Assembly (NCBI GenBank): GCA_964468655.1
Contig: CAYXUG010000003.1
Location: forward strand, 1-63,306
Direction of reading: 5' to 3'
Length of the DNA stretch: 63,306 nucleotides
Origin: an uncultured bacterium
Lineage (GTDB): Bacteria > Fidelibacterota > Marinisomatia > Marinisomatales > CAYXUG01
In this document: positions 57 to 16,544 of the stretch, one piece after another
How positions within the stretch are numbered: the stretch's first letter is position 1
How the letters are laid out: each line of letters starts with the position of its first letter
Position numbers and translations under genes: made by a program
The notes under the pieces: generated by a model
Told to the model about the DNA's origin: nothing
Seen by the model: the letters and a program-made list of their open reading frames with translations, nothing else
The model's database searches: none

Positions 57-2576
57 GTGTCGCCTCCCTCTCAAACCTTATGGGCGCCGGTAGATGGAGA
101 TATCACCATCACCTTTGATCAGGCGGTGGAGCCATCAACTATAAGCTCATCCAGTATCTATATCTTTGGCAACTGGATGGGAATTATGCCGGGAACGTTC
201 CAATTGGAGAATGGTAACACTCGGATTCGATTCACGCCCGATGTTCCCTTTTCAGTTGGGGAACTCATCACCATTTCAGTTTCAAAGGATGTTACGAGCA
301 GCGACGGTGATCCCCTCACCTTCGGCTACGCATGGCAGTACTGGACAGCGAGCGGTCCTGGAAGTCTTGATCTCGTCGAAATTGATCGATTTTCCACTCG
401 GCAAGAGGGAGAAGGATGGATTCAGACTTACGGTGCCTATGCCGGCGATCTAAACGGTGATGGCTGGCACGATTTCTCAGTTCCAAACGAGAGGTCGGAC
501 GATGTGAGAGTGTTCTTGAATGATGGCACGGGCAACTACGATCAGGACTTCGACATCTATCCGGTTCCGCCGAATTCCCGGCCAAGCACCAATCAGGGCG
601 CTGACTTTGATGGTGACGGACTGATGGACTTCGTCGTAGGCAACAGTTATTCGAACACCATAAGTGTGTTCATTGGTGACGGTCTTGGAGCCTTTTTTCC
701 ATCGGTCACTTATCCCGCAGATGAGAGTGTTCGGGGGTTGGGCGTCCTTGACCTCGATGGGGATGGAGACCCCGATATTGTTACAACCAACCGGAACGGC
801 AGCAATATCACCATTCTTCCCAACTCAGGCGGCGGAACGTTTGGAACGAGAATTCCCATTGAGGTTGGAGGCGTGAAGGAGAATGCGTGTGCCATCGCGG
901 ATATCAACGAGGACGGCATTCTGGATGCCTTCGTGGGTACCTACGAGAGTGAAGAGATTCTGGTTCTTTTGGGTGATGGACACGGCGGTCTAATTCCCAC
1001 ATCATCAGTGAGTTGCGAGGGGGCAGCGTGGATGGTCTTTGCGGGCGACGTGAATGGAGATGGACATGTGGATGTGGTATCAGCTAATGCATACACCGAT
1101 GAAGCCGCCGTGCTTTTCGGAGATGGCGAGGGTAATCTATCAGCCCCAGTTCTCCACCCTGTTATCGGCTTTCCGTTGGATATTAATCTGGGTGACCTGG
1201 ATGGTGATGGCGACCTCGATCTTGTGACGAGCAGTCTTGGCGTTCCCCATGACCACTTCGGGTTCAATTCTGTGGAAGAAGATACCGGGGCGTGGACGAT
1301 CTATGAAAATGACGGCTTTGGTAATTTTAGTAACCCAAGATTTCTTTATTCCCAGGACGCCGCTTCGTGTTGTACTCTGCATGATCGGGACAGAGACGGA
1401 GACCTTGACCTAACTGGCATTGATGAATCGGACGATTATATTTATGTGTTCGAGAATCTTGGCACGGATCTGGACCAGATGACAGTTGATCACATTTCTG
1501 GATGGAATTTGTTGGGACTGCCTCTCCAAGTTTCCAATTCCAACTATCAGGCGATTTTTCCCGACGCCATCACCGGGACGCTCTACTCCTTTACCGATGA
1601 GGGGGGATATGTGAACGAGTCAAACTTGGATTTTGGGAACGGTTACTGGCTCCGCTTCTCCGATGAAGGGTCGAATACCATTGCCGGATCGCCCTTTACC
1701 GAAGTAACGGTCTCCGTTGCGGAAGGGTGGAATCTGATTTCCGGCATCTCCACTACGGTTTCTGTTTTTGACATTGGCGATCCTGATAATCTGATCATTC
1801 CCGGCACACTATTCGGTTGGATAGGTATTTACGAGTTGTCGGAGGTCATTGAACCGGGGAATGGGTATTGGATTCGTGCCATTGGAAACGGAGAAATCAC
1901 CATTCCCGGCTCAGATGGTAGAAGGCGCGAAGCGGTTGATACTACAAGTCCATTAGAAAACGCCAGCTTTCTGGAGTTCACGAATGGAGAGGGTCACTCT
2001 CAGAAACTCTTCTTCGGCGGCCTAATTCCAGAAGGAGTAGAACTGAGTTATGGACTGCCTCCACTACCTCCCGGCGGACTGGACATCAGGTTTGAAGGCG
2101 ACAGGAGATGGCAGGAAGATGGAGGCGAGATTTCTGTGATGAACGATTCCTATCCACTAATTATCCGCTATGAAATCAGAGACACAAGCGGCGAGACTGG
2201 ATGGATGATCACGAACGAGGCGACAGGAGAAGACCACATTCTCTACGGTGACGGCACACTAGAGATCACATCGCCACTGGAAGGCCTTGCTCTGTCTCGA
2301 GCGGCAGTCCCAACCAGATTCGCTCTTTATCAAAATTATCCCAATCCCTTTAATCCGGTGACGACTATTCGCTATGGTCTGCCGGAAGCAGCCGATGTCC
2401 GGTTGGTGATTTACGACATCCTCGGCCGGGAAGTGACGAGCTTGATCAGCGGATTTTATCCTTCAGGATTTTATGACGTGGTGTGGGACGCCTCGAGTGT
2501 GTCGAGCGGCATCTACATCTATCAAGTGTCAACGGACTACGGACAACTCACCAAGAAACTGGTTCTGCTGAAATAA
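57..2576 (+). CDS. FG-GAP/VCBS-repeat (integrin-alpha-like propeller) protein with a T9SS type-A C-terminal sorting domain. It has no signal peptide and may be 5'-truncated.
   Basis: GTG start at 57. An in-frame TGA at 24-26 closes the frame upstream. Repeated Ca-binding FG-GAP signatures: DLNGDGWHDF, DFDGDGLMDF, DLDGDGDPDIV, DINEDGILDA, DVNGDGHVDVV, DLDGDGDLDLV, DRDGDLDL. The C-terminus YQNYPNPFNPVTTIRYGLP...GIYIYQV...KLVLLK is the Por/T9SS sorting-domain pattern. The N-terminus (MSPPSQTLWAPVDGDITITFDQ) has no hydrophobic leader. Confidence 0.8.
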   Translation: MSPPSQTLWAPVDGDITITFDQAVEPSTISSSSIYIFGNWMGIMPGTFQLENGNTRIRFTPDVPFSVGELITISVSKDVTSSDGDPLTFGYAWQYWTASGPGSLDLVEIDRFSTRQEGEGWIQTYGAYAGDLNGDGWHDFSVPNERSDDVRVFLNDGTGNYDQDFDIYPVPPNSRPSTNQGADFDGDGLMDFVVGNSYSNTISVFIGDGLGAFFPSVTYPADESVRGLGVLDLDGDGDPDIVTTNRNGSNITILPNSGGGTFGTRIPIEVGGVKENACAIADINEDGILDAFVGTYESEEILVLLGDGHGGLIPTSSVSCEGAAWMVFAGDVNGDGHVDVVSANAYTDEAAVLFGDGEGNLSAPVLHPVIGFPLDINLGDLDGDGDLDLVTSSLGVPHDHFGFNSVEEDTGAWTIYENDGFGNFSNPRFLYSQDAASCCTLHDRDRDGDLDLTGIDESDDYIYVFENLGTDLDQMTVDHISGWNLLGLPLQVSNSNYQAIFPDAITGTLYSFTDEGGYVNESNLDFGNGYWLRFSDEGSNTIAGSPFTEVTVSVAEGWNLISGISTTVSVFDIGDPDNLIIPGTLFGWIGIYELSEVIEPGNGYWIRAIGNGEITIPGSDGRRREAVDTTSPLENASFLEFTNGEGHSQKLFFGGLIPEGVELSYGLPPLPPGGLDIRFEGDRRWQEDGGEISVMNDSYPLIIRYEIRDTSGETGWMITNEATGEDHILYGDGTLEITSPLEGLALSRAAVPTRFALYQNYPNPFNPVTTIRYGLPEAADVRLVIYDILGREVTSLISGFYPSGFYDVVWDASSVSSGIYIYQVSTDYGQLTKKLVLLK

Positions 2577-2602
2577 TCCGTACAGAACGATATCTGTTAT
2601 TC

Positions 2603-3445
2603 ATGCTCGCTGTGCTCATCACGTCGGCAGCTACCGCTACCATTATCAGCATTCCTGAGGACTATCCCACGATTCAGGAGGGGATTAATGCTGCCACAAC
2701 AGGCGACTCCGTTCTCGTTGCACCGGGCACGTACGTTGAAAATATCAACTACAACGGCAAGAACATGGTGGTTGGCTCTTGGTTCTTGGTTACTGGTGAT
2801 ACAAGCTACATCTCGCAGACGGTGATTGATGGGAACCAAAGTGGGAGTGTGGTGACGTTTGAGAGTGGAGAAAATTCCAACGCACAATTAACCGGGTTTA
2901 CCATTACAAACGGTACGACTGTGACTGGCGGCGGGATTTATTGCCAAGGTTCTATTCCGAGTTTGATTAATACTATTCTATGGAACGATTTGCCGCAGGA
3001 GATTTATATCGGTTCAGGTTCAGTTAATGTATTTTACTCCGGTATTCAGGGAGGCTGGGAAGGCGAAGGCAACATTGACACCGATCCCCTCTTTGTCGAT
3101 CCCGAAAACGGTGATTTTACATTGCAATCTAACTCCCCCTGCATTGATGCAGGCACAGACTTCTTTGTCTGGGAAGGAGACACATTGGTGGATATGTCCC
3201 TTGACGATTATTATGGCACAGCTCCCGATATGGGAGTGTTTGAGTGGACAGGGTCGGAATATCTTTTAGGTGATGTGAATGGCGATGGTGTAGTAGACAT
3301 TTTTGATATTATTATTGTTGTAGATTTTATTCTTGGTAACCAAACTCTCACACCTTCACAATTTACCGCTGCTGATCTCAATCACGATATGTTTATCGAT
3401 GTGTTTGATGTTGTGTTGCTTGTAGAAGTCATTTTAGGAAATTAA
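2603..3445 (+). CDS. secreted right-handed beta-helix protein with a C-terminal type-I dockerin-like module
   Basis: The ATG at 2603 gives the leader MLAVLITSAATATI. The track start at 2483 overlaps the previous gene. Beta-helix pattern: IQEGINAATTGDSVLVAPGTYVENI, ITNGTTVTGGGIYC, PLFVDPENGDFTLQSNSPCIDAG. Two dockerin EF-hand-like repeats: GDVNGDGVVDIFDIIIVVDFILG and ADLNHDMFIDVFDVVLLVEVILG. Confidence 0.7.
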   Translation: MLAVLITSAATATIISIPEDYPTIQEGINAATTGDSVLVAPGTYVENINYNGKNMVVGSWFLVTGDTSYISQTVIDGNQSGSVVTFESGENSNAQLTGFTITNGTTVTGGGIYCQGSIPSLINTILWNDLPQEIYIGSGSVNVFYSGIQGGWEGEGNIDTDPLFVDPENGDFTLQSNSPCIDAGTDFFVWEGDTLVDMSLDDYYGTAPDMGVFEWTGSEYLLGDVNGDGVVDIFDIIIVVDFILGNQTLTPSQFTAADLNHDMFIDVFDVVLLVEVILGN

Positions 3446-3591: not shown

Positions 3592-6500
3592 TTGAAAAAA
3601 CTTCTTTTATTCTTTAAGCCGGTATTATTGGTACTTCTGTCATTAGCAGCGGGGCAGAGTACAGACCACCTCCTCATCTCCGAATTTGTTTTGGCTCCCA
3701 GTGATGTTGAGTTTATTGAACTGTATAACCCCACATCGTCAACCATTGATCTTTCGGATTATTACATCACTGACGGAACGGATTCGTCCGCAAGTGAATA
3801 TTATTACCGGCTGCCGGAAGATTCCTCGTTTTACAGCGGTACAAGTTCTGATTTTATTGCACGGTTCCCGAGCGGGAGTACCATAGGAGTTGAACAATAT
3901 GTAATTCTGGCTAAGCTGACATCTGAGTTTAACGCAAATTACGGATTCAATCCCGATTTTGAGTTTCAGTCTGACAGCGATGATGTGCCTGATATGAGGG
4001 ATGCAGTGGACAGTGAAGCCACCATAGGGACAACATCGGGCGGTTATTTATCCAATTCCAGTGAAGTGCTCATTTTGTTCAAATGGGATGGAGAAAGTGA
4101 TCTTGTTGAGGATGTGGACTACGTAACCTGGGGGAATCAAAGTAAAGGTGTGGATAAAACAGGAATTGCCATTGATGGTCCTGATTCAGACAGCGATTTA
4201 TCTCAGTACCTGGATGATACCTCAATTGACCTTCAGTCTTTTACTGCCACAACTAGTACCACCGGAAAGTCCATACAAAGGCAATTTCCTTATGAAGTTG
4301 GAGAAACATCAGCAGGTGGGAATGGGATGACAGGTAACAATGAAACGGGTGAAAACCTTGATTCAGCTTTCGTGGAATATTCAGTTACACCCGGATTTGG
4401 AATGTGGGAGACATCACCACAAATCACAAGTGTGGATTACTCACCTGATGTGCCAGTGGTAGGGGATACATTGACAGTTTCAGGAGCTATCACCGATATT
4501 GACGGCACTGTTGTAACAGCCAGATTGATTTATAATCAAGCTGAAAATGATTCGGTTGACATGACCACATTGGACGGTGAAAACTATTCGGGATCTGTGG
4601 AATTGATCTCTGATGATCAGTTTAGATTCACTATAAAAGCAGTGGATGACAGTGGGAATGTTACCATAAGTCCTGAAATTACGGTTGAAATTCAGTCGAG
4701 TAATCCGCCTGAAATTATTTTTCTCAGTCACAATCCGGCTTCGCCAACTGCGGACGATTCTGTTCGTATTAGTTTAGTGGCGGTTGAAGATAATGAAATT
4801 GATTCTGCGACTTTAAATTATACTCTTGATGAAAATCCCGGCAATCAATCAGAGTTTATTACCATTGAAATGACTGCAGATTCAGTTGTAATTGATACAT
4901 TTTATTATTCCACTTTTATTCCTCCTTTTGATTTTGGTACTCAAGTCACCTATTATTCAGTTATTACAGATAACCATGGTCTTAAGGACTCTACTAGTCT
5001 TGATTTAGCGCGCCAATACACAATTTTATCATCTTCGAGTATTACTATTGCTGAAATACGTGAAAACATTGATGATTTGGATGGACAAACGATTACGGTA
5101 GATGGTGTAATAACAGTTCCTATGGACATTATTAGAACAGATATCCATGAAGCTTTTTTACAGGATGAGTCGGGGCAGGGAATCGTCATTTTTTCATATG
5201 ATGCGGACCCGTCAATACAACGTGGTGATTCCATTATGATAACAGCAACGGTAGATGAGTTCGAGGGGAAACCGGAATTGATTGATTATTCAATTACAAC
5301 TTTAGACACAAATGCAACAATTCCCTTTGTTGAAATCAATATTCAGGAATTTAACAGCTTAGACTATTCGTACACTTTTGTGAAGTTGGAAGGAACAATC
5401 ATAGCAAGATCAAATCCAGGTGGATCAAATACCGGTGCAAATATAGTTATTCAGGATGAATCAGGAGGAGCTACAACAATCAGAATCTGGAATTCCACCA
5501 ACATTCTTTACAATGAAAGTTATGAAATTGTAAATACAGAATTAGACTCACTCCTTCAGGTTGGTAATGTAATTGAAGTGAGCGGTATTGGTGATTCTTA
5601 CGAAGGAAGTTCACAAATACTTCCAGCATTTGAAAATGATATTGTTATTTTGGAAGTCAACGAACCTGAGCCAACGCCGGATTTGTCAATTGCTGAAATA
5701 CGTGAAAACATTGATGATTTGGATGGACAAACGATTACGGTAGATGGTGTAATAACAGTTCCTATGGACATTATTAGAACAGATATCCATGAAGCTTTTT
5801 TACAGGATGAGTCGGGGCAGGGAATCGTCATTTTTTCATATGATGCGGACCCGTCAATACAACGTGGTGATTCCATTATGATAACAGCAACGGTAGATGA
5901 GTTCGAGGGGAAACCGGAATTGATTGATTATTCAATTACAACTTTAGACACAAATGCAGCAATACCATTTGTTGACCTCGATATTCAGGAATTCAATACC
6001 TTAGAATATTCGTACACCTTTGTGAAATTGTGGGGGAGAATTATTGCACGGTCAAATCCGACACCAACAAATTCCGGTGCAAATATAGATATTCAGGATG
6101 AATCAGGAGGAGTTACAACAATCAGAATCTGGAATTCCACCAACATTCTTTACAATGAAAATAATGAAATTTTAAATACAGAATTGGATTCATTGCTTCA
6201 AATCGGTACTGATATTGAAGTTTACGGTATTGGTGATTCATTCAGTGGAAGCTCACAAATACTGCCCGCTTATGCAGAGGATATCAGCGAAAAACTAGAA
6301 GGAATTGCAGGTGATTTTGAAACTTCCTTAGAGATTGAACCTTACCCGTTTGTCCCTCAATGGGGAGAAGTTATTAAATACACTTATAGTTTTCCGGACA
6401 ATGCAAGAATTAAGCTGAGAGTGTTTGACTTATCAGGTAGGTTCATAACCACACTTTTTGATGAATTCAGAGGAATCTCATTTTATAAAGAAGCCATCTG

Positions 6501-6633
6501 GGATGGCAGAAATGATCTGAACGAGGTTGTTCCACCGGGAGTGTACCTCATGCATTTGGAGGTTACGGATAAACTGAAGGGAAAAACGACAACGGATGTA
6601 GCGCCGGTGGTCATTGGCGTGAGAATGAAATGA
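3592..6633 (+). CDS. large secreted surface protein with no catalytic domain: lamin-tail domain, Ig-like modules, two OB-fold-like modules (ExeM/NucH type) and a FlgD-Ig/T9SS-like C-terminal domain
   Basis: TTG start with signal peptide MKKLLLFFKPVLLVLLSLAAG. LTD pattern: LLISEFVLAPSDVEFIELYNPTSSTIDLSDYYITDG...VDYVTWG. Duplicated module: IAEIRENIDDLDGQTITVDGVITV...EAFLQDESGQGIVIF...RGDSIMITATVDEFEGKPEL. C-terminal pattern: IKLRVFDLSGRFITTL...GVYLMHLEV. Confidence 0.75.
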   Translation: MKKLLLFFKPVLLVLLSLAAGQSTDHLLISEFVLAPSDVEFIELYNPTSSTIDLSDYYITDGTDSSASEYYYRLPEDSSFYSGTSSDFIARFPSGSTIGVEQYVILAKLTSEFNANYGFNPDFEFQSDSDDVPDMRDAVDSEATIGTTSGGYLSNSSEVLILFKWDGESDLVEDVDYVTWGNQSKGVDKTGIAIDGPDSDSDLSQYLDDTSIDLQSFTATTSTTGKSIQRQFPYEVGETSAGGNGMTGNNETGENLDSAFVEYSVTPGFGMWETSPQITSVDYSPDVPVVGDTLTVSGAITDIDGTVVTARLIYNQAENDSVDMTTLDGENYSGSVELISDDQFRFTIKAVDDSGNVTISPEITVEIQSSNPPEIIFLSHNPASPTADDSVRISLVAVEDNEIDSATLNYTLDENPGNQSEFITIEMTADSVVIDTFYYSTFIPPFDFGTQVTYYSVITDNHGLKDSTSLDLARQYTILSSSSITIAEIRENIDDLDGQTITVDGVITVPMDIIRTDIHEAFLQDESGQGIVIFSYDADPSIQRGDSIMITATVDEFEGKPELIDYSITTLDTNATIPFVEINIQEFNSLDYSYTFVKLEGTIIARSNPGGSNTGANIVIQDESGGATTIRIWNSTNILYNESYEIVNTELDSLLQVGNVIEVSGIGDSYEGSSQILPAFENDIVILEVNEPEPTPDLSIAEIRENIDDLDGQTITVDGVITVPMDIIRTDIHEAFLQDESGQGIVIFSYDADPSIQRGDSIMITATVDEFEGKPELIDYSITTLDTNAAIPFVDLDIQEFNTLEYSYTFVKLWGRIIARSNPTPTNSGANIDIQDESGGVTTIRIWNSTNILYNENNEILNTELDSLLQIGTDIEVYGIGDSFSGSSQILPAYAEDISEKLEGIAGDFETSLEIEPYPFVPQWGEVIKYTYSFPDNARIKLRVFDLSGRFITTLFDEFRGISFYKEAIWDGRNDLNEVVPPGVYLMHLEVTDKLKGKTTTDVAPVVIGVRMK
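5047..6290 (+). repeat. intragenic tandem duplication with a unit of about 642 bp (214 aa); the first 270 bp of the two copies are identical
   Basis: 5047-5316 is identical base-for-base to 5689-5958 (first difference a/g at 5317/5959). The rest of each unit is clearly homologous but diverged. The two antisense ORFs in the track (4953-5234 and 5598-5876) share identical N-terminal sequence for this reason. Confidence 0.9.
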
Positions 6634-7514
6634 AGAAGTTCCTTATCATAATTGGGTTTTGGTTTTGCATCCTTTCTGGGCAGGTTACATCAGATTATCT
6701 GTACAAAGGTCCTCGAACAGCCGCATTGGCAGGTAGCTCTATCGGCCGAACAAGTGATGGCTGGGCAATCTTCAATAATCCTGCCGGGCTTTCTCAGGTG
6801 GAGGGAATGTCTATTGTTGCCGGTTCGCAAAAAATATTTAATCTATCTTTCCTGCCCTATACCGTGGCAGGCGGAACATTTAATCTGAAGAATGCCGGTG
6901 TTATTGGCGCTGGTGTGGAAACCATGTCTGTGAAATATGATGCTATCAAATTAACCAGTGAGACAGCCATCAGATTTAGTCACGGATTTTATCTGCAGAA
7001 AGATGTTATTTCTTCGCTTGCGTTTGGTTATTCGCTGAAATTCTTCCAGTTGGATTATGGTCAATCTGCCGGACCCTCCGGGGATGGAACCGATGGTGTA
7101 AATCTTGGAAAAGGTAATGCTATAGGACTTGATATAGGTTTGCAGGCATCTCTCCGCGATCGGCACTGGATTGGTGTATTTGTTTCAAATATTAATCGAC
7201 CTAAAATTGGAGAAGGGTCTACTTCAACTCCACTCCCTCAACGGCTTCAGGCAGGATTCGGCTATTCCCCGTATTCTGTAGTCTGGACATACTTCTCACT
7301 CACCAAAGCGGTGAATCACGATACTCAGTACCACGCCGGAATTGAGTACTACCTCTTTAAAAATATAAGATTAATGTTTGGGACGCATACCGGTCCTTCC
7401 CGGTTTGGTGCCGGTATTTCTGCTGATCTCAATTTTCTTAATATCAGCTACGGACTTATTACCCACCCTGTTTTACCATTAACGCATCAATTTTCCTTTG
7501 GAGCCAATCTGTGA
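6630..7514 (+). CDS. outer-membrane beta-barrel protein, FadL/PorV/PorQ-like
   Basis: ATGA overlap with the upstream stop at 6630/6633. Signal peptide MKKFLIIIGFWFCILSG. N-terminal motif: RTAALAGSSIGRTSDGWAIFNNPAGL. The rest has alternating beta-strand character. Confidence 0.55.
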   Translation: MKKFLIIIGFWFCILSGQVTSDYLYKGPRTAALAGSSIGRTSDGWAIFNNPAGLSQVEGMSIVAGSQKIFNLSFLPYTVAGGTFNLKNAGVIGAGVETMSVKYDAIKLTSETAIRFSHGFYLQKDVISSLAFGYSLKFFQLDYGQSAGPSGDGTDGVNLGKGNAIGLDIGLQASLRDRHWIGVFVSNINRPKIGEGSTSTPLPQRLQAGFGYSPYSVVWTYFSLTKAVNHDTQYHAGIEYYLFKNIRLMFGTHTGPSRFGAGISADLNFLNISYGLITHPVLPLTHQFSFGANL

Positions 7515-9961
7515 AGCGTTTTTCTTTCACATTGATAATTTTGTTTGTTGGATTACTTTCTGCTGAACAGGTTGATCTTAACCTCGCATCTCTGGATGAA
7601 ATTAAGACACTCCCGCTTACAGATGAACAGGCAGAAGCCATTTATGATCGTCTTCTATTCCAGGGTCCATTTATATCAGTTTATGATTTAATGGATATTG
7701 AGGGGATGGATGTTGAAACATTCGCAATTATTAAACCGCTGATCATCATTTCAAAAGCAGCGAAAGATGGCGCAATAAACCGCCTGCAGGATGCATACCG
7801 AAAAGTGGAACGATGGACATCCATTGAAGGCGCAAATGAGGGAATGATTGAACAGTGGCTTGACCGGCTATCTGAACCTGTCCATATTATGTCCGCAACT
7901 TACGATGATCTTGTGGCGTTGCAGAATGTGAGCCCTGTGGACGCAGTGGCCGTTGTAAAAAAGCAGCAGCAAAAGGGAGGAATTGGTTATCCCAAAGCTC
8001 TGCGTGGCGCACCGGGACTTTCCTATTGGGGATACCGGAATATGATTGATTTTGTTACGTTTGATTCATCGCCTGAATTGAGTGAGAAACATTTCTGGTA
8101 TAACCTTACATGGAAAACTGTACCATCATCAACATCATTTGATGAAGAATCGGAATCGCCGGAAGCTGCTAACAGTTATCCACCTGCAGTTAACCATAAA
8201 TTGGTTTATTCTCCCAATAACCAATCGAAATTTTTAATGGCTTACCACCGGCAGTTAGGTGAAGAAAACAGGAGAATTGCTATTGGGAGCTTTGAAATCC
8301 CTGAATTTAAATTTTCATATAGTTTTAAAGGGAAAGGAAAAAATGTTTTTCAATTAGACCGCATGGTTTTCGGTAATTATTCAGTTACCATTGGGCAGGG
8401 AGTGGTCTTTGAAAGTACCGATTTCTGGTCCCCTCGCAGATCGGGTTACAGTTGGAGTAAACGTATTCATGGAATTTTACCTGACATATCTCAAACAAGG
8501 GAATATGCATTAAGGGGTGCCGCACTTCAGGGAAGGTTTGCGAATATCAAATTTCTCGGATTTATTTCCAAACACCCTCGGGACGCAGTGCTGAATATTG
8601 ACGGTTCCTTCACCTCTTTAATTACCATGTATCCACGAAGGGACTCGGTGTCTGCTGATGGGTTAATGGTACCTCTTACCAATACGGTTGAGGAAGTAAC
8701 CTGGGGTGGGAATATGCGGTTTGAAATTCAACCGGGGACATTTGTGGGATTCACTACGTATGAAAGTCTTTATGACAAAGAATTGAAACCTGACATATTA
8801 CGATCTGTCGTTGCAATTGATGAGCAGGAAAAATATTTGACTCAAATTGGAAATGCGGCAGACACTGAAATTGCCGCTATGTACAGTTCAGCAGGTTCTT
8901 CACCATTGTGGTCAGCCGCTAAAAGTGTAAGGCGTTTACATGGATTAGAATTTTCGGCTGTTTTAAGGGATATTGCTATCCAGGGTGAATTGGGTATTCT
9001 TGATAAAGATGGGAAAATTTCAGATATTAAGAGTGACCCCAAGGCATTGGTGGTAACTTCTTTTTTACAAGTAAATAATCTTAATTTATTAGCAGTTTAT
9101 AGAGACTATGATTTGGAATATGATAACCCGTATCAGAGGTCGTTTTCGAATTATCAGCGGTATAAGAGCACCATTTTTGAAGATGTGTTTTATTTAAAGG
9201 ATCCGGTGTTTGGGTATCTGTATTCAGGCAATTCCCAGCCACAGGCAGAACGTGGCATTTATCTTTCCAGCCGGTATCAGTTTCACCGCCAGTGGGTCAC
9301 CACCAATGAAATTGATATGTGGACCCGGGTTGCTGACAATTCAAAATATTACAGAATTGTTGCACGGTTTGAATATAGGCCGGTGTTCAACTATCGCTTC
9401 AAGATTCGTCAGAAGTGGCAGCAGCGTGCATCCTTTAACGATTGGACACCTACCGGATTTGATTCCAGAGAGACTCGCCTGGAAGCCATCCTCCGGCTTT
9501 CGAGATACGATAACCTTCGCCTGCTTTATGCACTGAACAAAGTACTGTTCAGTCCAAGGAGACGACTCTCACTCGACCTCGGGTCATTGGGTGAATCCAA
9601 TTCCATGGTAGGCGCCAGCGCTTTAAAGAGTGAAGCCATCGGTTTTACCGTAATACACAATTTTTCTGACAGAATGAAAGTGCTCGGTTCTGTCATCATG
9701 TATAACGGCTTTTTCTGGAATTTTGAAGATACCGATTTCAGGGTATTCGATTCACCGAAAGACGCATTACGGTGGTGGGTTACATTCTTTACACGCATTG
9801 GCGATAGATGGGCTATGCGGTTTAAAATATCCACAGATGCTTCTTATCCCATAACCAATTATAATTTTGCTATTGAAGATTATGAAAGAATTCAATGGTC
9901 TGGTCTCAGTAGCCAAAATGAATCAATAGATTTCAGGATTCAACTGGATTATGCGTATTAA
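7511..9961 (+). CDS. large (816 aa) outer-membrane protein with two N-terminal ComEA-like helix-hairpin-helix units
   Basis: GTGA overlap with the upstream stop. Signal peptide MKRFSFTLIILFVGLLSA. First HhH unit: VDLNLASLDEIKTLPLTDEQAEAIYDRLLFQGPFISVYDLMDIEGMDVETFAIIKPLI. Second unit: ATYDDLVALQNVSPVDAVAVVKKQQQKGG. Roughly 600 aa rich in aromatic/alternating residues follow, ending ...QLDYAY. Confidence 0.6.
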   Translation: MKRFSFTLIILFVGLLSAEQVDLNLASLDEIKTLPLTDEQAEAIYDRLLFQGPFISVYDLMDIEGMDVETFAIIKPLIIISKAAKDGAINRLQDAYRKVERWTSIEGANEGMIEQWLDRLSEPVHIMSATYDDLVALQNVSPVDAVAVVKKQQQKGGIGYPKALRGAPGLSYWGYRNMIDFVTFDSSPELSEKHFWYNLTWKTVPSSTSFDEESESPEAANSYPPAVNHKLVYSPNNQSKFLMAYHRQLGEENRRIAIGSFEIPEFKFSYSFKGKGKNVFQLDRMVFGNYSVTIGQGVVFESTDFWSPRRSGYSWSKRIHGILPDISQTREYALRGAALQGRFANIKFLGFISKHPRDAVLNIDGSFTSLITMYPRRDSVSADGLMVPLTNTVEEVTWGGNMRFEIQPGTFVGFTTYESLYDKELKPDILRSVVAIDEQEKYLTQIGNAADTEIAAMYSSAGSSPLWSAAKSVRRLHGLEFSAVLRDIAIQGELGILDKDGKISDIKSDPKALVVTSFLQVNNLNLLAVYRDYDLEYDNPYQRSFSNYQRYKSTIFEDVFYLKDPVFGYLYSGNSQPQAERGIYLSSRYQFHRQWVTTNEIDMWTRVADNSKYYRIVARFEYRPVFNYRFKIRQKWQQRASFNDWTPTGFDSRETRLEAILRLSRYDNLRLLYALNKVLFSPRRRLSLDLGSLGESNSMVGASALKSEAIGFTVIHNFSDRMKVLGSVIMYNGFFWNFEDTDFRVFDSPKDALRWWVTFFTRIGDRWAMRFKISTDASYPITNYNFAIEDYERIQWSGLSSQNESIDFRIQLDYAY

Positions 9962-11300
9962 ACTCAGCAAAATATTCGCCGGTGTTTTTCTGATATCGTC
10001 CATGTTCGGACAGTCATATTTTAATGGAGTGGTGGGAGAATTCGTCTGGTTCGGGGATTCTCGATCCATGGCAATGGGACAAACCGGAATTGCCGAAAGT
10101 CACGGATTCTCCAATTTGTGGATAAATCCTGCCCTACTGAATATTGATGGTCGATTTTTGTTTGAATCTACGTTACAAGTAAAACGGTTGGAAGAGCAGA
10201 GGACATTCCCGGTGATTGATATGTTTGGAGATATTGTTACTGATAATATTTACAATGTTTCTTCAAAATGGTATCAAAATGAATCATTCGGCGCAGTTCT
10301 AAATTTACCATTGCTGCCATTTACACTGGCTATAGGTAAAGCGCCATTCCTCGATTTCAGATTCCAATATGATGAAGGCGTCCGTGGTAACTTGACTTCA
10401 TCCAATTATAACAGGGATCCATTGGTGGGGTATCATCGAATTTCATCTGATGGAAAAATTGATGCTGTCAGCGGCGGAATTGCCTTAAGATTGTTAGACC
10501 GCATCCATTTTGGTGTGAGCGGACATATACTCACCGCAAGTGAATTTTCAAGAAATTACTCCGTTATTGTGATTGAGTCTGATGATGCCTTGGCAGCAGA
10601 AGATACACTTATCTTTGAATCTAAATGGGAGATTGAAAAAGTGAAAATGAAACCTTCACTTGCGAAACCATATACTTTTTCCGTTGGTGGTTCCATTGAC
10701 TTCAATTGGCATATCAGTATTTCTGCAAATTACAGGAATGGTGTTCATTTTAAAACGAGTGACCTTTCTGTTGCGCCATCCATTGATGAAAATACACTGC
10801 TTCCGGCTTATTCTTGGAGGGAAGACAGTCTGAAAATTCAGTATGCTTACCCAGAAAAATATTCGTTGGGAATACGCTATCAACCGACCAATCCTATTCC
10901 TACAAAACTATTTGCTGAAATTCATTATACGGACTGGTCACAATTTAAAATTTCCTATTCCCGAAGAGTGAATGATGAGGACAGCTTTTCCCACAACTTC
11001 AGTGAGACTTATGAATTTCGTTTTGGATTGGAACACATGGTGTTGAGGAAAATACCATTTAGAGCAGGATTCATTTATGCGGAGTCACCTTATGGGAATG
11101 AACTGGATAGAAGTATTTTCACAATTGGCAGCGGTTTCAGTCCATTGGATAATTTGACTGTTGATGTGGCCGGGAAATTCACTACAAGCGAATACAAATA
11201 TGTTGATATTTTCCCTGCAGTGGGGCAAGAAAGCACTGAATTGGAAAATGTAAAAGAATCGATAGGTACTCTTTCAGTTACTATGAAGTATGAATTTTAA
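9951..11300 (+). CDS. outer-membrane beta-barrel protein, FadL/PorV-like
   Basis: 11-nt overlap with the upstream gene. Signal peptide. Motif: GDSRSMAMGQTGIAESHGFSNLWINPALL. C-terminal ...TMKYEF, with the terminal aromatic typical of OMPs. Confidence 0.55.
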   Translation: MRIKLSKIFAGVFLISSMFGQSYFNGVVGEFVWFGDSRSMAMGQTGIAESHGFSNLWINPALLNIDGRFLFESTLQVKRLEEQRTFPVIDMFGDIVTDNIYNVSSKWYQNESFGAVLNLPLLPFTLAIGKAPFLDFRFQYDEGVRGNLTSSNYNRDPLVGYHRISSDGKIDAVSGGIALRLLDRIHFGVSGHILTASEFSRNYSVIVIESDDALAAEDTLIFESKWEIEKVKMKPSLAKPYTFSVGGSIDFNWHISISANYRNGVHFKTSDLSVAPSIDENTLLPAYSWREDSLKIQYAYPEKYSLGIRYQPTNPIPTKLFAEIHYTDWSQFKISYSRRVNDEDSFSHNFSETYEFRFGLEHMVLRKIPFRAGFIYAESPYGNELDRSIFTIGSGFSPLDNLTVDVAGKFTTSEYKYVDIFPAVGQESTELENVKESIGTLSVTMKYEF

Positions 11301-11355
11301 TAAACAATTTATTCACTACTATCGTCTCCTTTTTACTAAGGAGGGAATTAAGTGG

Positions 11356-13308
11356 ATGTCTGAGTCAAAAACAAATACACCATCCATTGTCATTTCTGTA
11401 GTGCTAATATTAATTTTTTTTCTCCCATTTTTGTCAGCAAAGGATGGGATCGATCGCCTGCACATTATTTTTACCAATGATCTCCGTGGCGCGATTCAAT
11501 ATCAGGAGGCACCATTTATCAATCCTGAGTTTGCGCCAAGAGTAACCGGCGGTGCAGCTGCTTTGGAGTATCTGAATGATGTGAGGGAAATGGTATCCCA
11601 AAATGGTGAAGAAGTCCTCGTGTTGGATGGAGGTAATGTCTTTCAAGGGAATCCATTGGGTACTCGCGATGGAGGGGAAACCATTATGAAGTGGATGAAT
11701 CAGATGGGATATGATGCCATGACAGTGGGGAATTATGATTTTGATCAGGGTATTGAAAATGTGAGAAAGCTTTCCAGACTTGCTGAATTCCCTTTTTTGG
11801 GTGGAAATATTCTGGATGAATCCACTGGAAGGACTGTGGATTTTTGTGCTTCTTACATTATAAAAGAAATGATGGGAATGAGGGTTGCAATTATTGGTGT
11901 AACAACTTCATCTTTTCCTGAGATTACTGTTCCAGAGGCTGTTGCAGGTTTAAAATTTGAAAGAGAACTGCCGTATGTAAAAAAGGCAATAGAACAAGTA
12001 AAAGCTCAAGGAGCTGAAATTGTCATTCTCCTTGCCCATTTGGGACTGCCTTATGATATTGAAGATAAGTTTAAAGATTTCATTGATGATGTTTCAAATT
12101 CAAAAAAAGATTGGAATTCTGTTTCACTTAATGCAATGCAACTGGCACATTTTATCCAAGGAGTTGATGTCATCATTACAGGCCACATTACCAAGGGATA
12201 TAATGATCCATGGGAAGATCCTATGAGTCATGCCCTCTGTTTTCAGTCATATGGAAGTGGCACAAGCATTGGACATATAATATTGAATATAGACCGGCAG
12301 ACAAAACAGATGATTGGTTATGACACTCCCTCTGAAAGAGGCGCATTGATAACCTTATTTGATGATGATTTTCATCACAATTTTGATGGTGCTGATCAAA
12401 TTGAGGGTTGGCGGAAAATTGCTCAAAAGCAAGTCAGTAAACCAGTAAACCTACCAAGTAATAGTCGGACAGAAATATCAATTCAAGATAATTGGGCTAT
12501 TCCTTCATTCGGCAGTGACAACCGATTGGAAATCGCAACATGGAATATTGAATTTTTCCCAAAAGCAGGGGATACCACAATCGCTGCCATGGCGGAAGTG
12601 GTCAATGACTTGAATGTAGATATTATAGGGATTCAGGAAATCGGCAAGCGAGGTTCCTTCGCTGAAATGATGGCGCTTATTCCGGAGTACGATTATGTGC
12701 TCAGTCAGAGTTCATCTTTTTTCGATCAGGCCATCATTTACAAGAAAGAGTTTGTGACGGCGGTCTCCCAAAAAGATCTCTTTACATTTGAAGATTACTG
12801 GTTCGCCGGAAGACCTCCTTTGCAGGGAGATTTCATCTGGAATAATGGGGGAATTCAGTTCCCAGTTTCAGTGATTGATATACACATGAAATGCTGTGAT
12901 GACGGAATCTACCGTCGTAGTGTGGCGAGTAAAATGCTAGCTGATTATATAAAGGAAAAAATAGCTGGTGACAATTCCAATATTTTAGTTGTAGGAGACT
13001 GGAATGATGAAATTGATGATCCTTGGCATGAACAATCATTGAATCCATTTGTGCAGGATAAAGAAAATTTTTATTTTACTACTATTCCAATTCTCTACGA
13101 TCCAACTCAATATTCTTACCCATCTTGGCCAAGTTTCCTTGATCACATACTGATATCAAAAAGTCTGTTTTTTGAAAACAAATCATCGGGTAACACTCAA
13201 ACCATAAGATTACAGGATTACGTGGGGGGATGGGATGAATATGAAAGGATTCTTTCTGATCATTTACCGGTGGTCTGGTCTATTTCGTTTGAAAATTCTC
13301 CCAATTAG
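11356..13308 (+). CDS. membrane-anchored UshA-type 5'-nucleotidase/metallophosphoesterase fused to a C-terminal endonuclease/exonuclease/phosphatase (EEP) domain
   Basis: ATG at 11356 is preceded by AAGGAGG at 11339-11345. N-terminal anchor: IVISVVLILIFFLPFLSA. Metallophosphoesterase motifs: HIIFTNDLRG, LDGGNVFQG, GNYDFD, LAHLG. EEP motifs: IATWNIEFFPK, DIIGIQEI, VVGDWND, SDHLPVVW. Confidence 0.8.
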   Translation: MSESKTNTPSIVISVVLILIFFLPFLSAKDGIDRLHIIFTNDLRGAIQYQEAPFINPEFAPRVTGGAAALEYLNDVREMVSQNGEEVLVLDGGNVFQGNPLGTRDGGETIMKWMNQMGYDAMTVGNYDFDQGIENVRKLSRLAEFPFLGGNILDESTGRTVDFCASYIIKEMMGMRVAIIGVTTSSFPEITVPEAVAGLKFERELPYVKKAIEQVKAQGAEIVILLAHLGLPYDIEDKFKDFIDDVSNSKKDWNSVSLNAMQLAHFIQGVDVIITGHITKGYNDPWEDPMSHALCFQSYGSGTSIGHIILNIDRQTKQMIGYDTPSERGALITLFDDDFHHNFDGADQIEGWRKIAQKQVSKPVNLPSNSRTEISIQDNWAIPSFGSDNRLEIATWNIEFFPKAGDTTIAAMAEVVNDLNVDIIGIQEIGKRGSFAEMMALIPEYDYVLSQSSSFFDQAIIYKKEFVTAVSQKDLFTFEDYWFAGRPPLQGDFIWNNGGIQFPVSVIDIHMKCCDDGIYRRSVASKMLADYIKEKIAGDNSNILVVGDWNDEIDDPWHEQSLNPFVQDKENFYFTTIPILYDPTQYSYPSWPSFLDHILISKSLFFENKSSGNTQTIRLQDYVGGWDEYERILSDHLPVVWSISFENSPN

Positions 13309-14203
13309 ATTTTTTCTTTCTTTAGCCACATTATTTTGGATGAGTTGTGGTGAAGTTATATCCGGTAATGCAAATGATAATGGTGGGATAGATCCACCTC
13401 CATCGGGTGAAGTCGATGAGATTGAAATTGTAACATGGAATATAGAGCATTTTCCCAAAAGTGATTTAACAGTAGAAAAAACAATTACAATTATGGATAC
13501 CTTAGATGCTGATATTTACTGTATTCAGGAAATTACAGATGTAACCAATTTTGAAAATGTGGCTGATGCTCTAGATGGGTATAACGCTATTATTTCAACA
13601 GAAGCGTGGTCACTGGGAGTCATTTATCGGTCAACAATGTTAACAGCATCAAATATTGAGGAATTTTTTCTTGATCACTCTGGATTTGCGACACGTCCTC
13701 CTTTGAAAGTGGATTTTAGTTATCAGATTGATGAAGCTCAATATTTCTTCTCAGTGATCAATTTACACATGAAATGTTGTGGGGATGGGGAAATTGAACA
13801 TGAAAATGAAAACGATGAGGAATTCAGGCGGTACGGTGCGAGTATTACTTTAAAAAATTATATTGATGCCAGTATGGATAACGATAATGTAATTATTGTC
13901 GGTGATTGGAATGATCTAATCGTAGAAGAAGTTGAATCGAACAATGTTTTTATGAATTTTATTGAAGATGAAGACAATTTTATGTTTGTTGATATGAGTA
14001 TTGCCAATGGCTCAACAGCAAATTGGTCATATCCATCATGGCCAAGTCACATTGACCACATTCTAATCACCAATGAACTTTTCGATGAATTCCAGTATTC
14101 ATTAATTTCTACCATTCGAGCTGATGATTTCATTGATAATTATTTTACTGATGTTTCCGACCACCGTCCTGTTATGTGGAAATTTCAACCGAATTTCGAG
14201 TAA
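13289..14203 (+). CDS. EEP-family nuclease/phosphatase, probable lipoprotein (paralog of the C-terminal domain of the previous gene)
   Basis: An in-frame TTG at 13289 gives (M)KILPIRFFLSLATLFWMSCG. The alternative ATG at 13235 lies inside the previous gene. EEP motifs: IVTWNIEHFPK, DIYCIQEI, IIVGDWND, SDHRPVMW. Confidence 0.72.
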   Translation: MKILPIRFFLSLATLFWMSCGEVISGNANDNGGIDPPPSGEVDEIEIVTWNIEHFPKSDLTVEKTITIMDTLDADIYCIQEITDVTNFENVADALDGYNAIISTEAWSLGVIYRSTMLTASNIEEFFLDHSGFATRPPLKVDFSYQIDEAQYFFSVINLHMKCCGDGEIEHENENDEEFRRYGASITLKNYIDASMDNDNVIIVGDWNDLIVEEVESNNVFMNFIEDEDNFMFVDMSIANGSTANWSYPSWPSHIDHILITNELFDEFQYSLISTIRADDFIDNYFTDVSDHRPVMWKFQPNFE

Positions 14204-14206
14204 ACG

Positions 14207-15178
14207 TTGAATCCATTTTTCATTTTACTTTTTACCGGTTTTCTGATTTCACAGGAAGCGTCTTTTGTTAAATATTACAAGTCCAAAGATGATGTCATCA
14301 AAGGAATCCCCATGGATGCAACGGATCGTATTGGGAAAAGTCACATCCGTGTTTTTTATGATAAAATGAACAATATGGTGTCAAAAGGGTGGATGGATGA
14401 AACAGACAAATTGTTGAAGGAGGAAGTATTTGAATACAATGAAGATGGCTCCATTTGGAAAAGGGGTCTCAGGACCGGCACCGGTCATACAGAAAAACTT
14501 TACATTTATGGCGACAAAGAGGATGTTTCAAACGAATTCATTCAATATGTCTACTCTAACAGAAATGAAAAAGAATTTTTTGACCGAATAACAGTTTATG
14601 AGTTTCTATCTGACAGTTCCATTGATAACTACCAATTTTTTAGCATTGATTATACTCCATTTGGAACAATTGAATACCATTTTTCAGATGATAAAAATGA
14701 AAAGTCTGAAAAGTGGATTCGACTTCCCGAGAAAAAATTAGTTAGGCAATTTCAATACAATCATTATTCCGATACCGATGATTACGAACTCCTTGAAATT
14801 GATTCAATGGGGACTGTAATCAGTCATGTTGGTTTGAACTTATCTATTTTTTCTGGAGAAGAACTTTTAACCTTAACAACCAGTGGTAATGTGTTGGAGG
14901 AAAGTAAACCCATTATCAGAGAAATTCGTGAAAGAAAAGCTGCCGGTTGGAAAATGCCGGAAGATATTAAAATTGATTTTCAGGATGATTCTGAATTTTT
15001 ACCTGATAAGATTACCCTTAATAATGATGAAACTTTAGATGTGGATCTTGTAGTTGTTACTGATTTGTATGCTAGGTTTCGATTATTGGGTGAAAAAGAA
15101 ATTTTAACCATACCTCTTGTATCGGTCAGTGAAGTGAAAAAACGGGATGGAACTGTTATTTACCCAATTTCTTTTTAA
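14207..15178 (+). CDS. hypothetical secreted protein
   Basis: Long ORF starting 3 nt after the previous stop. TTG start. Hydrophobic leader MNPFFILLFTGFLISQ. No motif recognised. Confidence 0.5.
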   Translation: MNPFFILLFTGFLISQEASFVKYYKSKDDVIKGIPMDATDRIGKSHIRVFYDKMNNMVSKGWMDETDKLLKEEVFEYNEDGSIWKRGLRTGTGHTEKLYIYGDKEDVSNEFIQYVYSNRNEKEFFDRITVYEFLSDSSIDNYQFFSIDYTPFGTIEYHFSDDKNEKSEKWIRLPEKKLVRQFQYNHYSDTDDYELLEIDSMGTVISHVGLNLSIFSGEELLTLTTSGNVLEESKPIIREIRERKAAGWKMPEDIKIDFQDDSEFLPDKITLNNDETLDVDLVVVTDLYARFRLLGEKEILTIPLVSVSEVKKRDGTVIYPISF

Positions 15179-15233
15179 AGAATTGATAGACAAGCTTGAT
15201 TTTAGGGTTAGCACAAATTATATTGGAGGCGCT

Positions 15234-16007
15234 GTGAGAAACCGATTTACGTATCTCTTGATGATTTTATTTTGTGTTTGTGTCCAGGCGCAAGATTATC
15301 CCGCACCGACCAATCTGATAACAATTCCGACAGCAGGTGTGCTGGTTAGGGGTACCTACACGGCAGATGCCCGCATTCAAAATGGAGGCGGATTAATCTT
15401 TGGATTGTCTGTGGGAATTACTAACAGGTTCATGTTTGGACTCTCCTACGGCGCAGGGAATCTTATCGGTGATGACAGCTTAAAATGGTATCCCCGTCCT
15501 GAAGTCAATTTAAAGTACCGACTTATTGATGAAGACATGTCCAAACCGGGAATTGCCATCGGATTAGAGACTCAAGGGCTAGGAGAGTTTTTGGATGCCG
15601 ATACATTGAATAGGTACAGCACAAAAGCATTGGGTGCTTATCTTTCAATGAGTAAAAACTGGAAATCACCGCTGGGTAATGCGGGGCTTCACGCCGGAAT
15701 TAATTATAATTTTACTGAGCAGTTGGATGGTGATAAAGATATGAGCGCATTTGCAGGTTTTGATGTGGAAATTAACCCTGAACTTTCTTTTATTATGGAA
15801 TACAATGCAGCACTTAATGAAAATGCTATGACAATCAGGAACATTGCCCTCAGCAGAGGCGGTTACCTGAATACCGCAATTCGTTGGACATTTGTAGATC
15901 ACCTTCATATTGAACTCGAGTTTAATAATCTGCTGTTCAACAAAAAAAATGAAAGTTTGCAAACATTCACGCGGGAATTGAAAATCACCTATATTGAATA
16001 TTTTTAA
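15234..16007 (+). CDS. hypothetical outer-membrane beta-barrel protein
   Basis: GTG at 15234 follows GGAGG at 15225-15229 and gives the leader VRNRFTYLLMILFCVCVQAQ. Alternating beta-strand pattern. C-terminus ...KITYIEYF. Confidence 0.5.
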   Translation: MRNRFTYLLMILFCVCVQAQDYPAPTNLITIPTAGVLVRGTYTADARIQNGGGLIFGLSVGITNRFMFGLSYGAGNLIGDDSLKWYPRPEVNLKYRLIDEDMSKPGIAIGLETQGLGEFLDADTLNRYSTKALGAYLSMSKNWKSPLGNAGLHAGINYNFTEQLDGDKDMSAFAGFDVEINPELSFIMEYNAALNENAMTIRNIALSRGGYLNTAIRWTFVDHLHIELEFNNLLFNKKNESLQTFTRELKITYIEYF

Positions 16008-16010
16008 TTT

Positions 16011-16544
16011 TTGGAGAGTTACAGTTTGAGAATTCTAATTTGGTTTAGTTTAATATTTTCTATTACATTTGGCCAGTCGCGGCTGGAAATAGGCATGAAA
16101 GCTCCGGATTGGGAATTTCCCGATGCTGATGGGACAATGTTTACCATGGGAAATTGGGCAGGAAAGATTCTCCAGGTAAATTATGTTGACCCGGACGAAT
16201 CAGAAATGAATGAAGCATTTAACGATGCGGTTAAGCATGCTGTTGATGTGGAAAAAAGAATTGAGAGAGATACGTTTCAGGGGATTGGTGTTGCAGACTG
16301 TGCATCGACATGGAAACCTAATTTTGCAATTAGGCTTATCGGCGGCGCCAAGGCAAAAAAGTATGATACCACAGTTCTGTTCGATTATGATGCAGTCCTC
16401 AGGGATTCATGGGGACTAAATAAAAATTCTTATAGTATAATAATTGTTGATGAAGATAGAATTGTCCGTGTTCTGGAGCGGGGAAAAATTCCTAAAGAGC
16501 GGTTTGAAGAAATTATCCTGACAATTATCGAATTGCAGGAATAA
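16011..16544 (+). CDS. thioredoxin-fold periplasmic protein, YtfJ-like (no CxxC)
   Basis: Signal peptide present. Redoxin-like pattern: GMKAPDWEFPDADGTMFTMGNWAGKILQVNYVDPD...IIIVDEDRIVRV. This matches my memory of the YtfJ/HI0045 family. Confidence 0.5.
   Translation: MESYSLRILIWFSLIFSITFGQSRLEIGMKAPDWEFPDADGTMFTMGNWAGKILQVNYVDPDESEMNEAFNDAVKHAVDVEKRIERDTFQGIGVADCASTWKPNFAIRLIGGAKAKKYDTTVLFDYDAVLRDSWGLNKNSYSIIIVDEDRIVRVLERGKIPKERFEEIILTIIELQE

Follow-up and report, generated by a model that had tools for sequence, protein, structure and literature searches.

The window, a stretch of 63,306 nucleotides (positions 1 to 63,306 of contig CAYXUG010000003.1, here C3), belongs to the genome of an uncultured bacterium of the phylum Fidelibacterota (assembly GCA_964468655.1; 2.0 Mb, 91 contigs, 94.7% complete). 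The subject of this report is gene C, which encodes a protein with two N-terminal helix-hairpin-helix (HhH) units followed by a predicted outer-membrane (OM) beta-barrel, together with the genes around it (A to H) and their possible role in the use of extracellular DNA. Every gene from 3592 to 16544 lies on the + strand. The parts of gene C are the following.

7511..9961, + strand: gene C, 816-aa HhH-HhH-barrel protein
7511..7564, + strand: signal peptide, aa 1-18, hydrophobic, ending in LLSA and followed by EQ, without lipobox cysteine (read from the translation)
7562..7741, + strand: HhH unit 1, aa 18-77, ComEA-type fold, acidic, with non-canonical hairpins
7751..7876, + strand: helical linker, aa 81-122, conserved; the model shows its helices at 87-103 and 110-121
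7877..8065, + strand: HhH unit 2, aa 123-185, with the conserved motifs LQNVSPVDA and PGLSYWGY
8090..9955, + strand: beta-barrel, aa 194-815, about 24 strands by DSSP of the model, ending in DYAY

Gene C was read as the open reading frame 7511-9961 (+), of 816 aa and with a GTG start, and its N-terminus matches in the alignment the methionine starts of 20 homologues. A start/stop overlap GTGA at 7511-7514 joins gene B to gene C, an overlap of 11 nt (9951-9961) joins gene C to gene D, and genes A and B share an ATGA overlap. Close homologues of gene C were named Candidatus Marinimicrobia, Neomarinimicrobiota or Fidelibacterota.

HhH unit 1 was matched by the Pfam model HHH_3 (PF12836) with an E value of 2.8e-9 (37.4 bits, cut-off 27). 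Residues 17-81 of the structural model described below were superposed on ComEA (8dss_B) with a root-mean-square deviation (rmsd) of 1.3 Å over 65 residues, 31% identity and a Z score of 12.3, and HhH unit 1 on the HhH of Tex (3bzc) with an rmsd of 1.0 over 64 residues. When a profile of 21 homologues was compared with the PDB sequences, the matches were confined to the region of HhH unit 1 and were EEPD1 (9yi2), ComEA (8dss and 8dfk) and the ComEA-related 2duy. The linker holds columns that are invariant in the 21 homologues, namely D94, Y96, E100, W102, EGANEG at 106-111, W116, L117, R119 and E122. HhH unit 2 alone gave a sub-threshold HHH_3 match (aa 123-182, E 0.04, 14.5 bits); at the level of the family it is taken as real, because distant members match HHH_3 at that position. 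All 27 distant family members scanned had an HHH_3 match, in 26 of them above the cut-off; two stretches were found in 13 of the 27, and in several the best stretch was that of the second position, above the cut-off there. Weak matches to T2SSK_1st (GspK HhH-like) were obtained in three distant members.

ComEA pulls DNA into the periplasm (PMC3879209). The likeness of gene C to ComEA is one of fold and does not extend to the motifs for DNA contact. The hairpins are LP-LTDEQA and EGMDVETF in unit 1 and LQNVSPVDA and PGLSYWGY in unit 2, compared with LPGIGPAMA and KGIGNKKL in the ComEA of this genome; it is the Gly-hydrophobic-Gly hairpins of HhH units that contact the DNA backbone. An earlier note, written from the sequence alone, had described unit 1 as close to the ComEA consensus, which holds for the hydrophobic core but not for the two hairpins, both of which differ. 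No alignment of either HhH unit with the genome's own 145-aa ComEA was obtained by BLASTP at E ≤ 100, and the curated ComEA models were not reached by gene C (TIGR01259, 22.7 bits against 152.35; TIGR00426, absent at E ≤ 0.01). HhH unit 2 has a net charge of +1 (family median +2, weakly basic) and the HhH region of the genome's ComEA one of +1; of the two units, unit 2 would be the better candidate for DNA binding. Compared with ComEA (PDB 8dss, 8dfk, 2duy), gene C shares the fold of unit 1, the hydrophobic core and, as far as its topology indicates, the periplasmic side, but its units remain below the cut-offs of the ComEA models, have lost Gly-x-Gly, include an acidic unit 1 and are fused to a barrel, whereas ComEA is free or anchored in the inner membrane.

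The barrel was modelled with AlphaFold2 from an alignment of 68 sequences, down to 19% identity (pLDDT 87.7, pTM 0.85); a model from the 21 close homologues alone (pLDDT 53.8) was set aside. Between residues 194 and 815, 24 long strands were counted by eye on the DSSP string. Eleven connections of 2-7 residues alternate with 12 of 2-50 residues, and the N-terminus joins the turn side. Short connections are usually the periplasmic turns of OM proteins, and by this rule the HhH module would be on the periplasmic side of the membrane. The C-terminus is DYAY (DYAF in relatives), a terminal aromatic residue being typical of OM barrels. Residues that face the predicted lumen, as judged from the hydrophobic alternation, comprise 22 R and 10 K versus 6 D and 12 E, and the basic positions conserved among the 68 sequences include K230, K267, R357, R531, R588, R615, K635, R639 and K772. 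The two best-conserved segments are long loops, aa 295-333 and 534-579, in which Arg, Tyr, Asn and Ser are abundant.

Foldseek returned 159 matches at E ≤ 0.001, every one of them an OM barrel, the best being the FimD usher (E 2.5e-8, TM about 0.3). VIA-align was run on the list of Foldseek and on 48,161 representatives, and no family of solved barrels was prominent, with Z scores of 10-14 across porins, AlgE, Occ, Wzi, ushers, MtrB and TonB-dependent transporters. OmpM1 reached Z 14.3 over 281 aa in a partial alignment; Wzi, AlgE and the Occ porins gave Z of about 12-13, MtrB 10.8, BtuB 10.1 and PiuA 9.5. FimD and PapC covered the whole barrel (model residues 191-816; 363-375 aa, rmsd 3.9-5.0, Z 12-13) and were the only solved barrels to do so, a likeness of structure alone; the alignments at Z 12.6-13.0 had 363-370 aa and an rmsd of 4.7-5.0. 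An usher barrel consists of 24 strands around a lumen that is wide and gated. Gene C has 8-10% identity to them, gave no usher family among its Pfam matches and has neither the plug nor the N- and C-terminal domains of ushers; its inclusion in the usher family was rejected, its N-terminus being the HhH pair and the structural match generic.

Neither TonB_dep_Rec (PF00593) nor Plug (PF07715) matched gene C at E ≤ 0.01. The same two models found 8 and 9 genuine sites, respectively, elsewhere in the genome and none at C3:7511-9961; by these models gene C bears no signature of a TonB-dependent transporter, either of its plug or of its barrel. The barrel of such transporters has 22 strands, compared with the 24 counted here, and the scores of BtuB and PiuA are lower than those of the usher pores, all of them generic. 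The secretin domain PF00263 was not matched on gene C. Among structural look-alikes in the ESM Atlas, taken as leads only, were Bacteroidota and Cloacimonadota clusters, DUF6029 and the tandem-HhH 'ComE' proteins of Bacteroidota.

The architecture described in the earlier note is confirmed, apart from the closeness of unit 1 to the ComEA consensus. Two HhH units in the first ~170 aa were proposed there, and the N-terminal region does fold as HhH in the model; the remaining ~600 aa, seen as a large beta-barrel, are modelled as one of about 24 strands with only OM barrels among its matches in Foldseek and VIA, and the fusion of both parts is real. The strand number and the side of the HhH units, which the note had suggested obtaining from a predicted structure, are about 24 and, by the topology pattern, probably periplasmic. 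Gene C had also been described as sandwiched between, and coupled to, two FadL/PorV-like barrels, and both flanking genes do overlap it.

To assess the conservation of the neighbourhood, the proteins of the window served as tblastn queries against 62 loci in the genomes of close relatives and 80 metagenome loci of a distant branch, the latter with 25-30% identity to gene C; only loci with enough flank were included in the counts. The genes of the cassette other than gene C, with the loci in which each is kept, are the following.

3592..6633, + strand: gene A, surface protein of 1013 aa, secreted, comprising one lamin-tail domain and two OB-fold modules; Marinimicrobia loci 38/38, distant loci 40/46
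6630..7514, + strand: gene B, 294-aa small PorV/PorQ-like OM barrel (PorV_fam 39.4 bits, E 5.3e-10, below the cut-off of 90), upstream of gene C; Marinimicrobia loci 48/48, distant loci 53/56
9951..11300, + strand: gene D, 449-aa FadL/TodX-like barrel (Pfam Toluene_X 47.1 bits, cut-off 29.7), following gene C; Marinimicrobia loci 53/53, distant loci 26/67 by tblastn and 59/67 by a profile of D homologues
11290..13308, + strand: gene E, metallophosphatase of 5'-nucleotidase type with a fused endonuclease/exonuclease/phosphatase (EEP) domain; Marinimicrobia loci 45/45, distant loci 51/55
13235..14203, + strand: gene F, EEP nuclease of 322 aa whose leader is of lipoprotein type (…FWMSC; Exo_endo_phos 34 bits); Marinimicrobia loci 25/36, distant loci 0/41

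Gene C is the fixed centre of a cassette A-B-C-D-E that contains a 5'-nucleotidase with or without a nuclease. The Pfam matches of gene A are LTD, the lamin-tail domain (44.5 bits), and tRNA_anti-codon, the OB-fold (46.7 bits). Its residues ~690-1013 match by tblastn genes upstream in distant loci, whose proteins bear DUF5689/FlgD_ig; two of these have DUF5689 above the cut-off (37.8 and 43.4 bits), and the comparison of the DUF5689 model with the genome gave a weak match on gene A itself (12.2 bits, E 0.11). Six proteins at the position of gene A were scanned in distant loci: two had DUF5689 above the cut-off, four an OB-fold and one LTD. C-terminal domains of FlgD_ig type occur on gene A homologues of distant loci, with PorP_SprF-like, PorV-like or CHU_C genes nearby. 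Gene D also gave PorV_fam (38.2 bits) and BamG (31.2 bits) in NCBIfam, each below its cut-off. Gene E was matched by Exo_endo_phos (58 bits) and Metallophos (25.5 bits) of Pfam and by UshA of NCBIfam (110 bits, below the cut-off). The matches of gene F to ExeM/NucH, Xth and MnuA were weak.

The Pfam content of the neighbours was determined in 32 distant loci, leaving aside four further loci with enough flank and four near-duplicates. A canonical 5'-nucleotidase was present in 18 of the 32 and small PLDc_2 nucleases in nine others, so that 27 had one or the other and five had neither; DHH phosphoesterases were found in six and ABC importer genes in four. The metallophosphatase half of gene E lacks 5_nucleotid_C and is fused to EEP; in distant loci, the canonical two-domain 5'-nucleotidase and separate genes for PLD-type nucleases are found. 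The catalytic parts have been swapped between loci and the barrels kept. A flavin amine-oxidase-like gene was observed directly 3' of the 5'-nucleotidase in seven distant loci (L079, L093, L096, L097, L103, L114 and L123).

The gene content resembles two described systems and one family of nucleases. In Bacteroides thetaiotaomicron, ddbABCDEF is required to deplete exogenous DNA; its products are three nucleases, DdbC, which is TonB-dependent, and DdbD, a DUF5689 protein that was modelled as DNA-binding (PMC12478041). As in ddb, a single locus here combines secreted or lipoprotein nucleases, the matches of genes E and F to Exo_endo_phos representing this feature, with an OM barrel and an OB-fold surface protein that is putatively of DUF5689 type; the shared logic would be cutting outside, import and periplasmic digestion. 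In contrast to ddb, the transporter is unrelated, with ~24 strands, no Plug/TonB_dep_Rec and tandem N-terminal HhH units; it is flanked by two additional small barrels, and the nucleases are of EEP or PLD type joined to a 5'-nucleotidase. The carriers also differ, being uncultured phyla of the FCB group and Elusimicrobiota in one case and Bacteroidales in the other.

In Riemerella anatipestifer, a DUF5689 protein (RA0C_RS04920), the adjacent OM barrel (RA0C_RS04915) and a separate HhH protein (RA0C_RS02645) were each reported as essential for natural transformation (PMC8459023). A surface protein, here putatively of DUF5689 type, an OM barrel and a multi-HhH protein predicted as periplasmic are common to both. 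In Riemerella, however, the HhH protein is separate and encoded elsewhere, the barrel is of a carboxypeptidase-regulatory/TonB-linked type and the phenotype is transformation, whereas the HhH units of gene C are part of one protein with a barrel of another kind, in a locus full of nucleases. The lamin-tail, OB-fold and EEP nuclease parts of ExeM/NucH (NF033681) are all present in the locus, but they are split over gene A (LTD and OB-fold, without nuclease) and genes E and F (EEP), and the ExeM/NucH model gave 32.5 bits on gene A and 15.8 and 27.2 bits in its other matches, all far under the cut-off of 300.

With moderate confidence, we propose that gene C is the TonB-independent OM importer of a locus for the scavenging of extracellular DNA. 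Since genes for DNA binding, for nucleases and for a nucleotidase constantly accompany it, gene C probably admits environmental DNA fragments into the cell as food. The importer would be analogous to that of ddbABCDEF of Bacteroidales, with a transporter of another family, and the cassette is a variant of the recently described DNA-utilization loci, built on an uncharacterised protein family. DNA would be captured at the cell surface by the product of gene A and cut by the lipoprotein and secreted EEP nucleases (PLD-type in other phyla); the fragments would cross the putatively wide, arginine-lined barrel of gene C, and the HhH module at its periplasmic mouth may retain the incoming strand or pass it to the nuclease/5'-nucleotidase, which would free nucleosides and phosphate. 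The earlier note had seen in gene C an OM device for the handling of DNA, a possible gate or ratchet, and the gene context does concern DNA; in view of the nuclease/nucleotidase context, scavenging is a more likely role of such a device than competence.

Several observations weigh against this proposal. Of 68 family members, only 0, 1, 0 and 2 have a Gly-x-Gly hairpin at the first to the fourth position, respectively. The net charge of HhH unit 1 is -10, with a family median of -3 and positive values in only 15% of the members, and the whole N-terminal module has a median charge of -7 across the family. DNA binding by the HhH units of gene C is doubtful, because unit 1 is so acidic and the Gly-x-Gly hairpins are missing throughout the family. 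The pore itself could be plugged or narrowed by loops 295-333 and 534-579, whose mean conservation (0.46 and 0.52, respectively) exceeds that of the strands (0.36) among the 68 sequences. The VIA alignments to Wzi, BtuB and PiuA took in model residues 136-657, 98-816 and 97-816, respectively; as these ranges start at residues 97-136, the model hints that the linker and HhH unit 2 lie at the plug position of those proteins, at the periplasmic mouth. The two flanking FadL-like barrels could be the true channels, and no inner-membrane nucleoside or nucleotide transporter was found in the operon of the window. Moreover, DNA was reported to be a poor sole source of C, N or P for B. thetaiotaomicron (PMC12478041).

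A more far-reaching version of the importer is put forward only tentatively. Gene C might represent a nucleic-acid translocon of a new class, a TonB-independent OM pore, wide and lined with arginine, that threads DNA strands, the inward motion being rectified by the tethered ComEA-derived HhH pair and by periplasmic hydrolysis. It would raise the question of whether DNA import can be driven by a tethered ComEA-like module in place of TonB or of a pilus that retracts. To our knowledge, polymeric DNA crosses the OM by only two known routes, secretin/pilus competence and, since 2025, the TonB-dependent Ddb of Bacteroidales; if the importer reading is true, the gene C family would be a third, without energy coupling. 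In the sea and in sediments, a large reservoir of organic nitrogen and phosphorus consists of dissolved DNA. Because abundant uncultured phyla of both habitats carry the family, a translocon of this kind would be a major unrecognised route for the recycling of carbon and phosphorus from dissolved DNA, and gene C could serve as a marker of DNA-scavenging capacity in metagenomes.

Three other explanations were considered. Gene C could be the scaffold of a surface nuclease complex, its barrel plugged, its HhH units docking periplasmic proteins and the small products (nucleosides, nucleotides) entering via B and D, in which case the family would illustrate how HhH domains have been turned to the docking of proteins. 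The points raised above on the acidic unit 1, to which an acidic linker can be added, and on the hairpins lost across the family would fit this explanation, as would the linker, which is better conserved than HhH unit 1 among close homologues (EGANEG, W102 and W116 invariant), the pTM of 0.85, which suggests that the N-terminal module is docked on the barrel, the residues 97-190 taken in by the alignments to the plug-bearing Wzi, BtuB and PiuA, and the weak T2SSK_1st matches. We nevertheless consider it unlikely: a barrel of ~24 strands is costly as a mere anchor, conserved Arg and Lys are frequent in its predicted lumen, both B and D are of small size (294 aa in the case of B), and the barrel has a function of its own, because homologues without HhH and with their own leader exist (P0247, 627 aa). 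Still less probable is an export or anchoring function, in which the three barrels, as a branch of the type IX system or as an usher-like pore, would secrete or attach the product of gene A and the nucleases. The usher pores gave the best full-length structural alignments of the barrel, but this similarity is generic, without the Pfam match or the accessory domains of ushers; gene B resembles PorV/PorQ, and distant gene A homologues have the FlgD_ig-type C-termini and neighbours mentioned above, but the PorV-like matches are below the cut-offs. In addition, we know of no role for a periplasmic HhH pair in protein export, and this explanation is regarded as very improbable.

Natural transformation, in which gene C would bring transforming DNA over the OM and the HhH units would act as a tethered ComEA feeding ComEC, is supported by the Riemerella proteins, each of which is essential there (PMC8459023), and by the reported homology of DdbC/DdbD to the Riemerella transformation genes (PMC12478041). 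The nucleases and the nucleotidase of the locus would, however, destroy transforming DNA, and competence genes are encoded elsewhere in the genome: a PilQ-like secretin (TIGR02515, 187.6 bits, below the cut-off of 284; the only PF00263 match of the genome, on contig C27), the 145-aa ComEA (TIGR00426, 73.7 bits, cut-off 53.1), ComEC and DprA. With these, there is no missing OM step to explain. Among 301 sampled genomes of the phylum, 102 had both the barrel and ComEC, 20 the barrel only, 109 ComEC only and 70 neither. ComEC was thus present in 102/122 carriers (84%) versus 109/179 non-carriers (61%), a mildly positive association between genomes that are, as kin, not independent; 30 reduced genomes of one family have neither barrel nor ComEC. 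Against this, the 20 carriers without detected ComEC include all five sampled genomes of one genus, with a completeness of 87-95%. No competence gene was found in any cassette among the loci inspected. With two EEP nucleases, a phosphatase of 5'-nucleotidase type and an LTD/OB-fold surface protein encoded around gene C, the context points to scavenging rather than to competence that bypasses PilQ, and the uptake route independent of PilQ suggested in the earlier note is not supported. A role in transformation is less likely than DNA scavenging, and we give it little credence.

Regarding the distribution of the family, 419 representatives were related at E ≤ 0.001 in the all-against-all search, and 96 at E ≤ 1e-30. 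Gene C was present in 122 of the 301 sampled genomes of the phylum (70/180 of the high-quality genomes; 46/104 genera), unevenly among families, from 0/30 or 0/42 in some to 15/15 in others. The cassette extends through Marinimicrobia and, at 25-30% identity, to WOR-3, Edwardsbacteria, Elusimicrobiota and Caldipriscota, the source names of the distant members being Elusimicrobiota, Ca. Caldipriscus, Ca. Edwardsbacteria and WOR-3. A survey of the phyletic distribution, proposed in the earlier note, thus finds the fusion widely conserved, in the phylum and, by source names, in four others. The label Lentisphaeria was found on two loci from metagenome-assembled genomes (L030 and L043) and on one protein cluster (P0049). 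No paper on an HhH-barrel fusion was found in the literature, in agreement with the note, which had not recognised such a fusion as characterised.

Variants of the architecture were also observed. P0247 is a 627-aa barrel without HhH and with its own leader, P0205 has the arrangement TPR-HhH-barrel in 1251 aa, and variants with a single HhH unit have ~685 aa; the proteins noted with variants are P0205, P0247, P0314 and P0315.

Downstream of gene F, the run of genes on the + strand continues with two secreted proteins, for neither of which a match was found in Pfam or NCBIfam.

14207-15178, + strand: gene G, secreted, without family match
15147-16007, + strand: gene H, 286-aa secreted protein without family match, ending in ...YIEYF

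Gene H has ~60% identity in Marinimicrobia loci by tblastn and is possibly the fourth small barrel of the cassette.

Gene A contains a direct repeat of 300 nt (5047-5346 and 5689-5988; 98% identity, spaced 642 nt) that is visible also in the protein, and which reflects an OB-fold module duplicated in tandem very recently; Tandem Repeats Finder gave nothing on gene A, and the duplication was obtained from a separate repeat search. The scan for promoters and terminators gave no excess over shuffled sequences (45 vs 43.4 ± 7.1 and 13 vs 10.4 ± 3.6, respectively). Contigs of RNA libraries, from a single sample in one study, contain short stretches identical to parts of gene A (4244-4431 and 5243-5365) and of gene D (9963-10184); no such stretch falls inside gene C, which has no weight either way.

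Directly upstream of the cassette, an FG-GAP repeat protein with a type IX sorting domain (57-2576; Por_Secre_tail, 35.1 bits) and a dockerin-bearing protein (2483-3445) are encoded, and many related loci have, 5' of the cassette, a C-terminal piece like that of the FG-GAP protein. Downstream, a QueG-type epoxyqueuosine reductase is encoded at 17286-18263, and a QueH-type protein lies downstream in a distant locus (L092:7224-7829); this proximity may be a coincidence or a link with nucleobase salvage.

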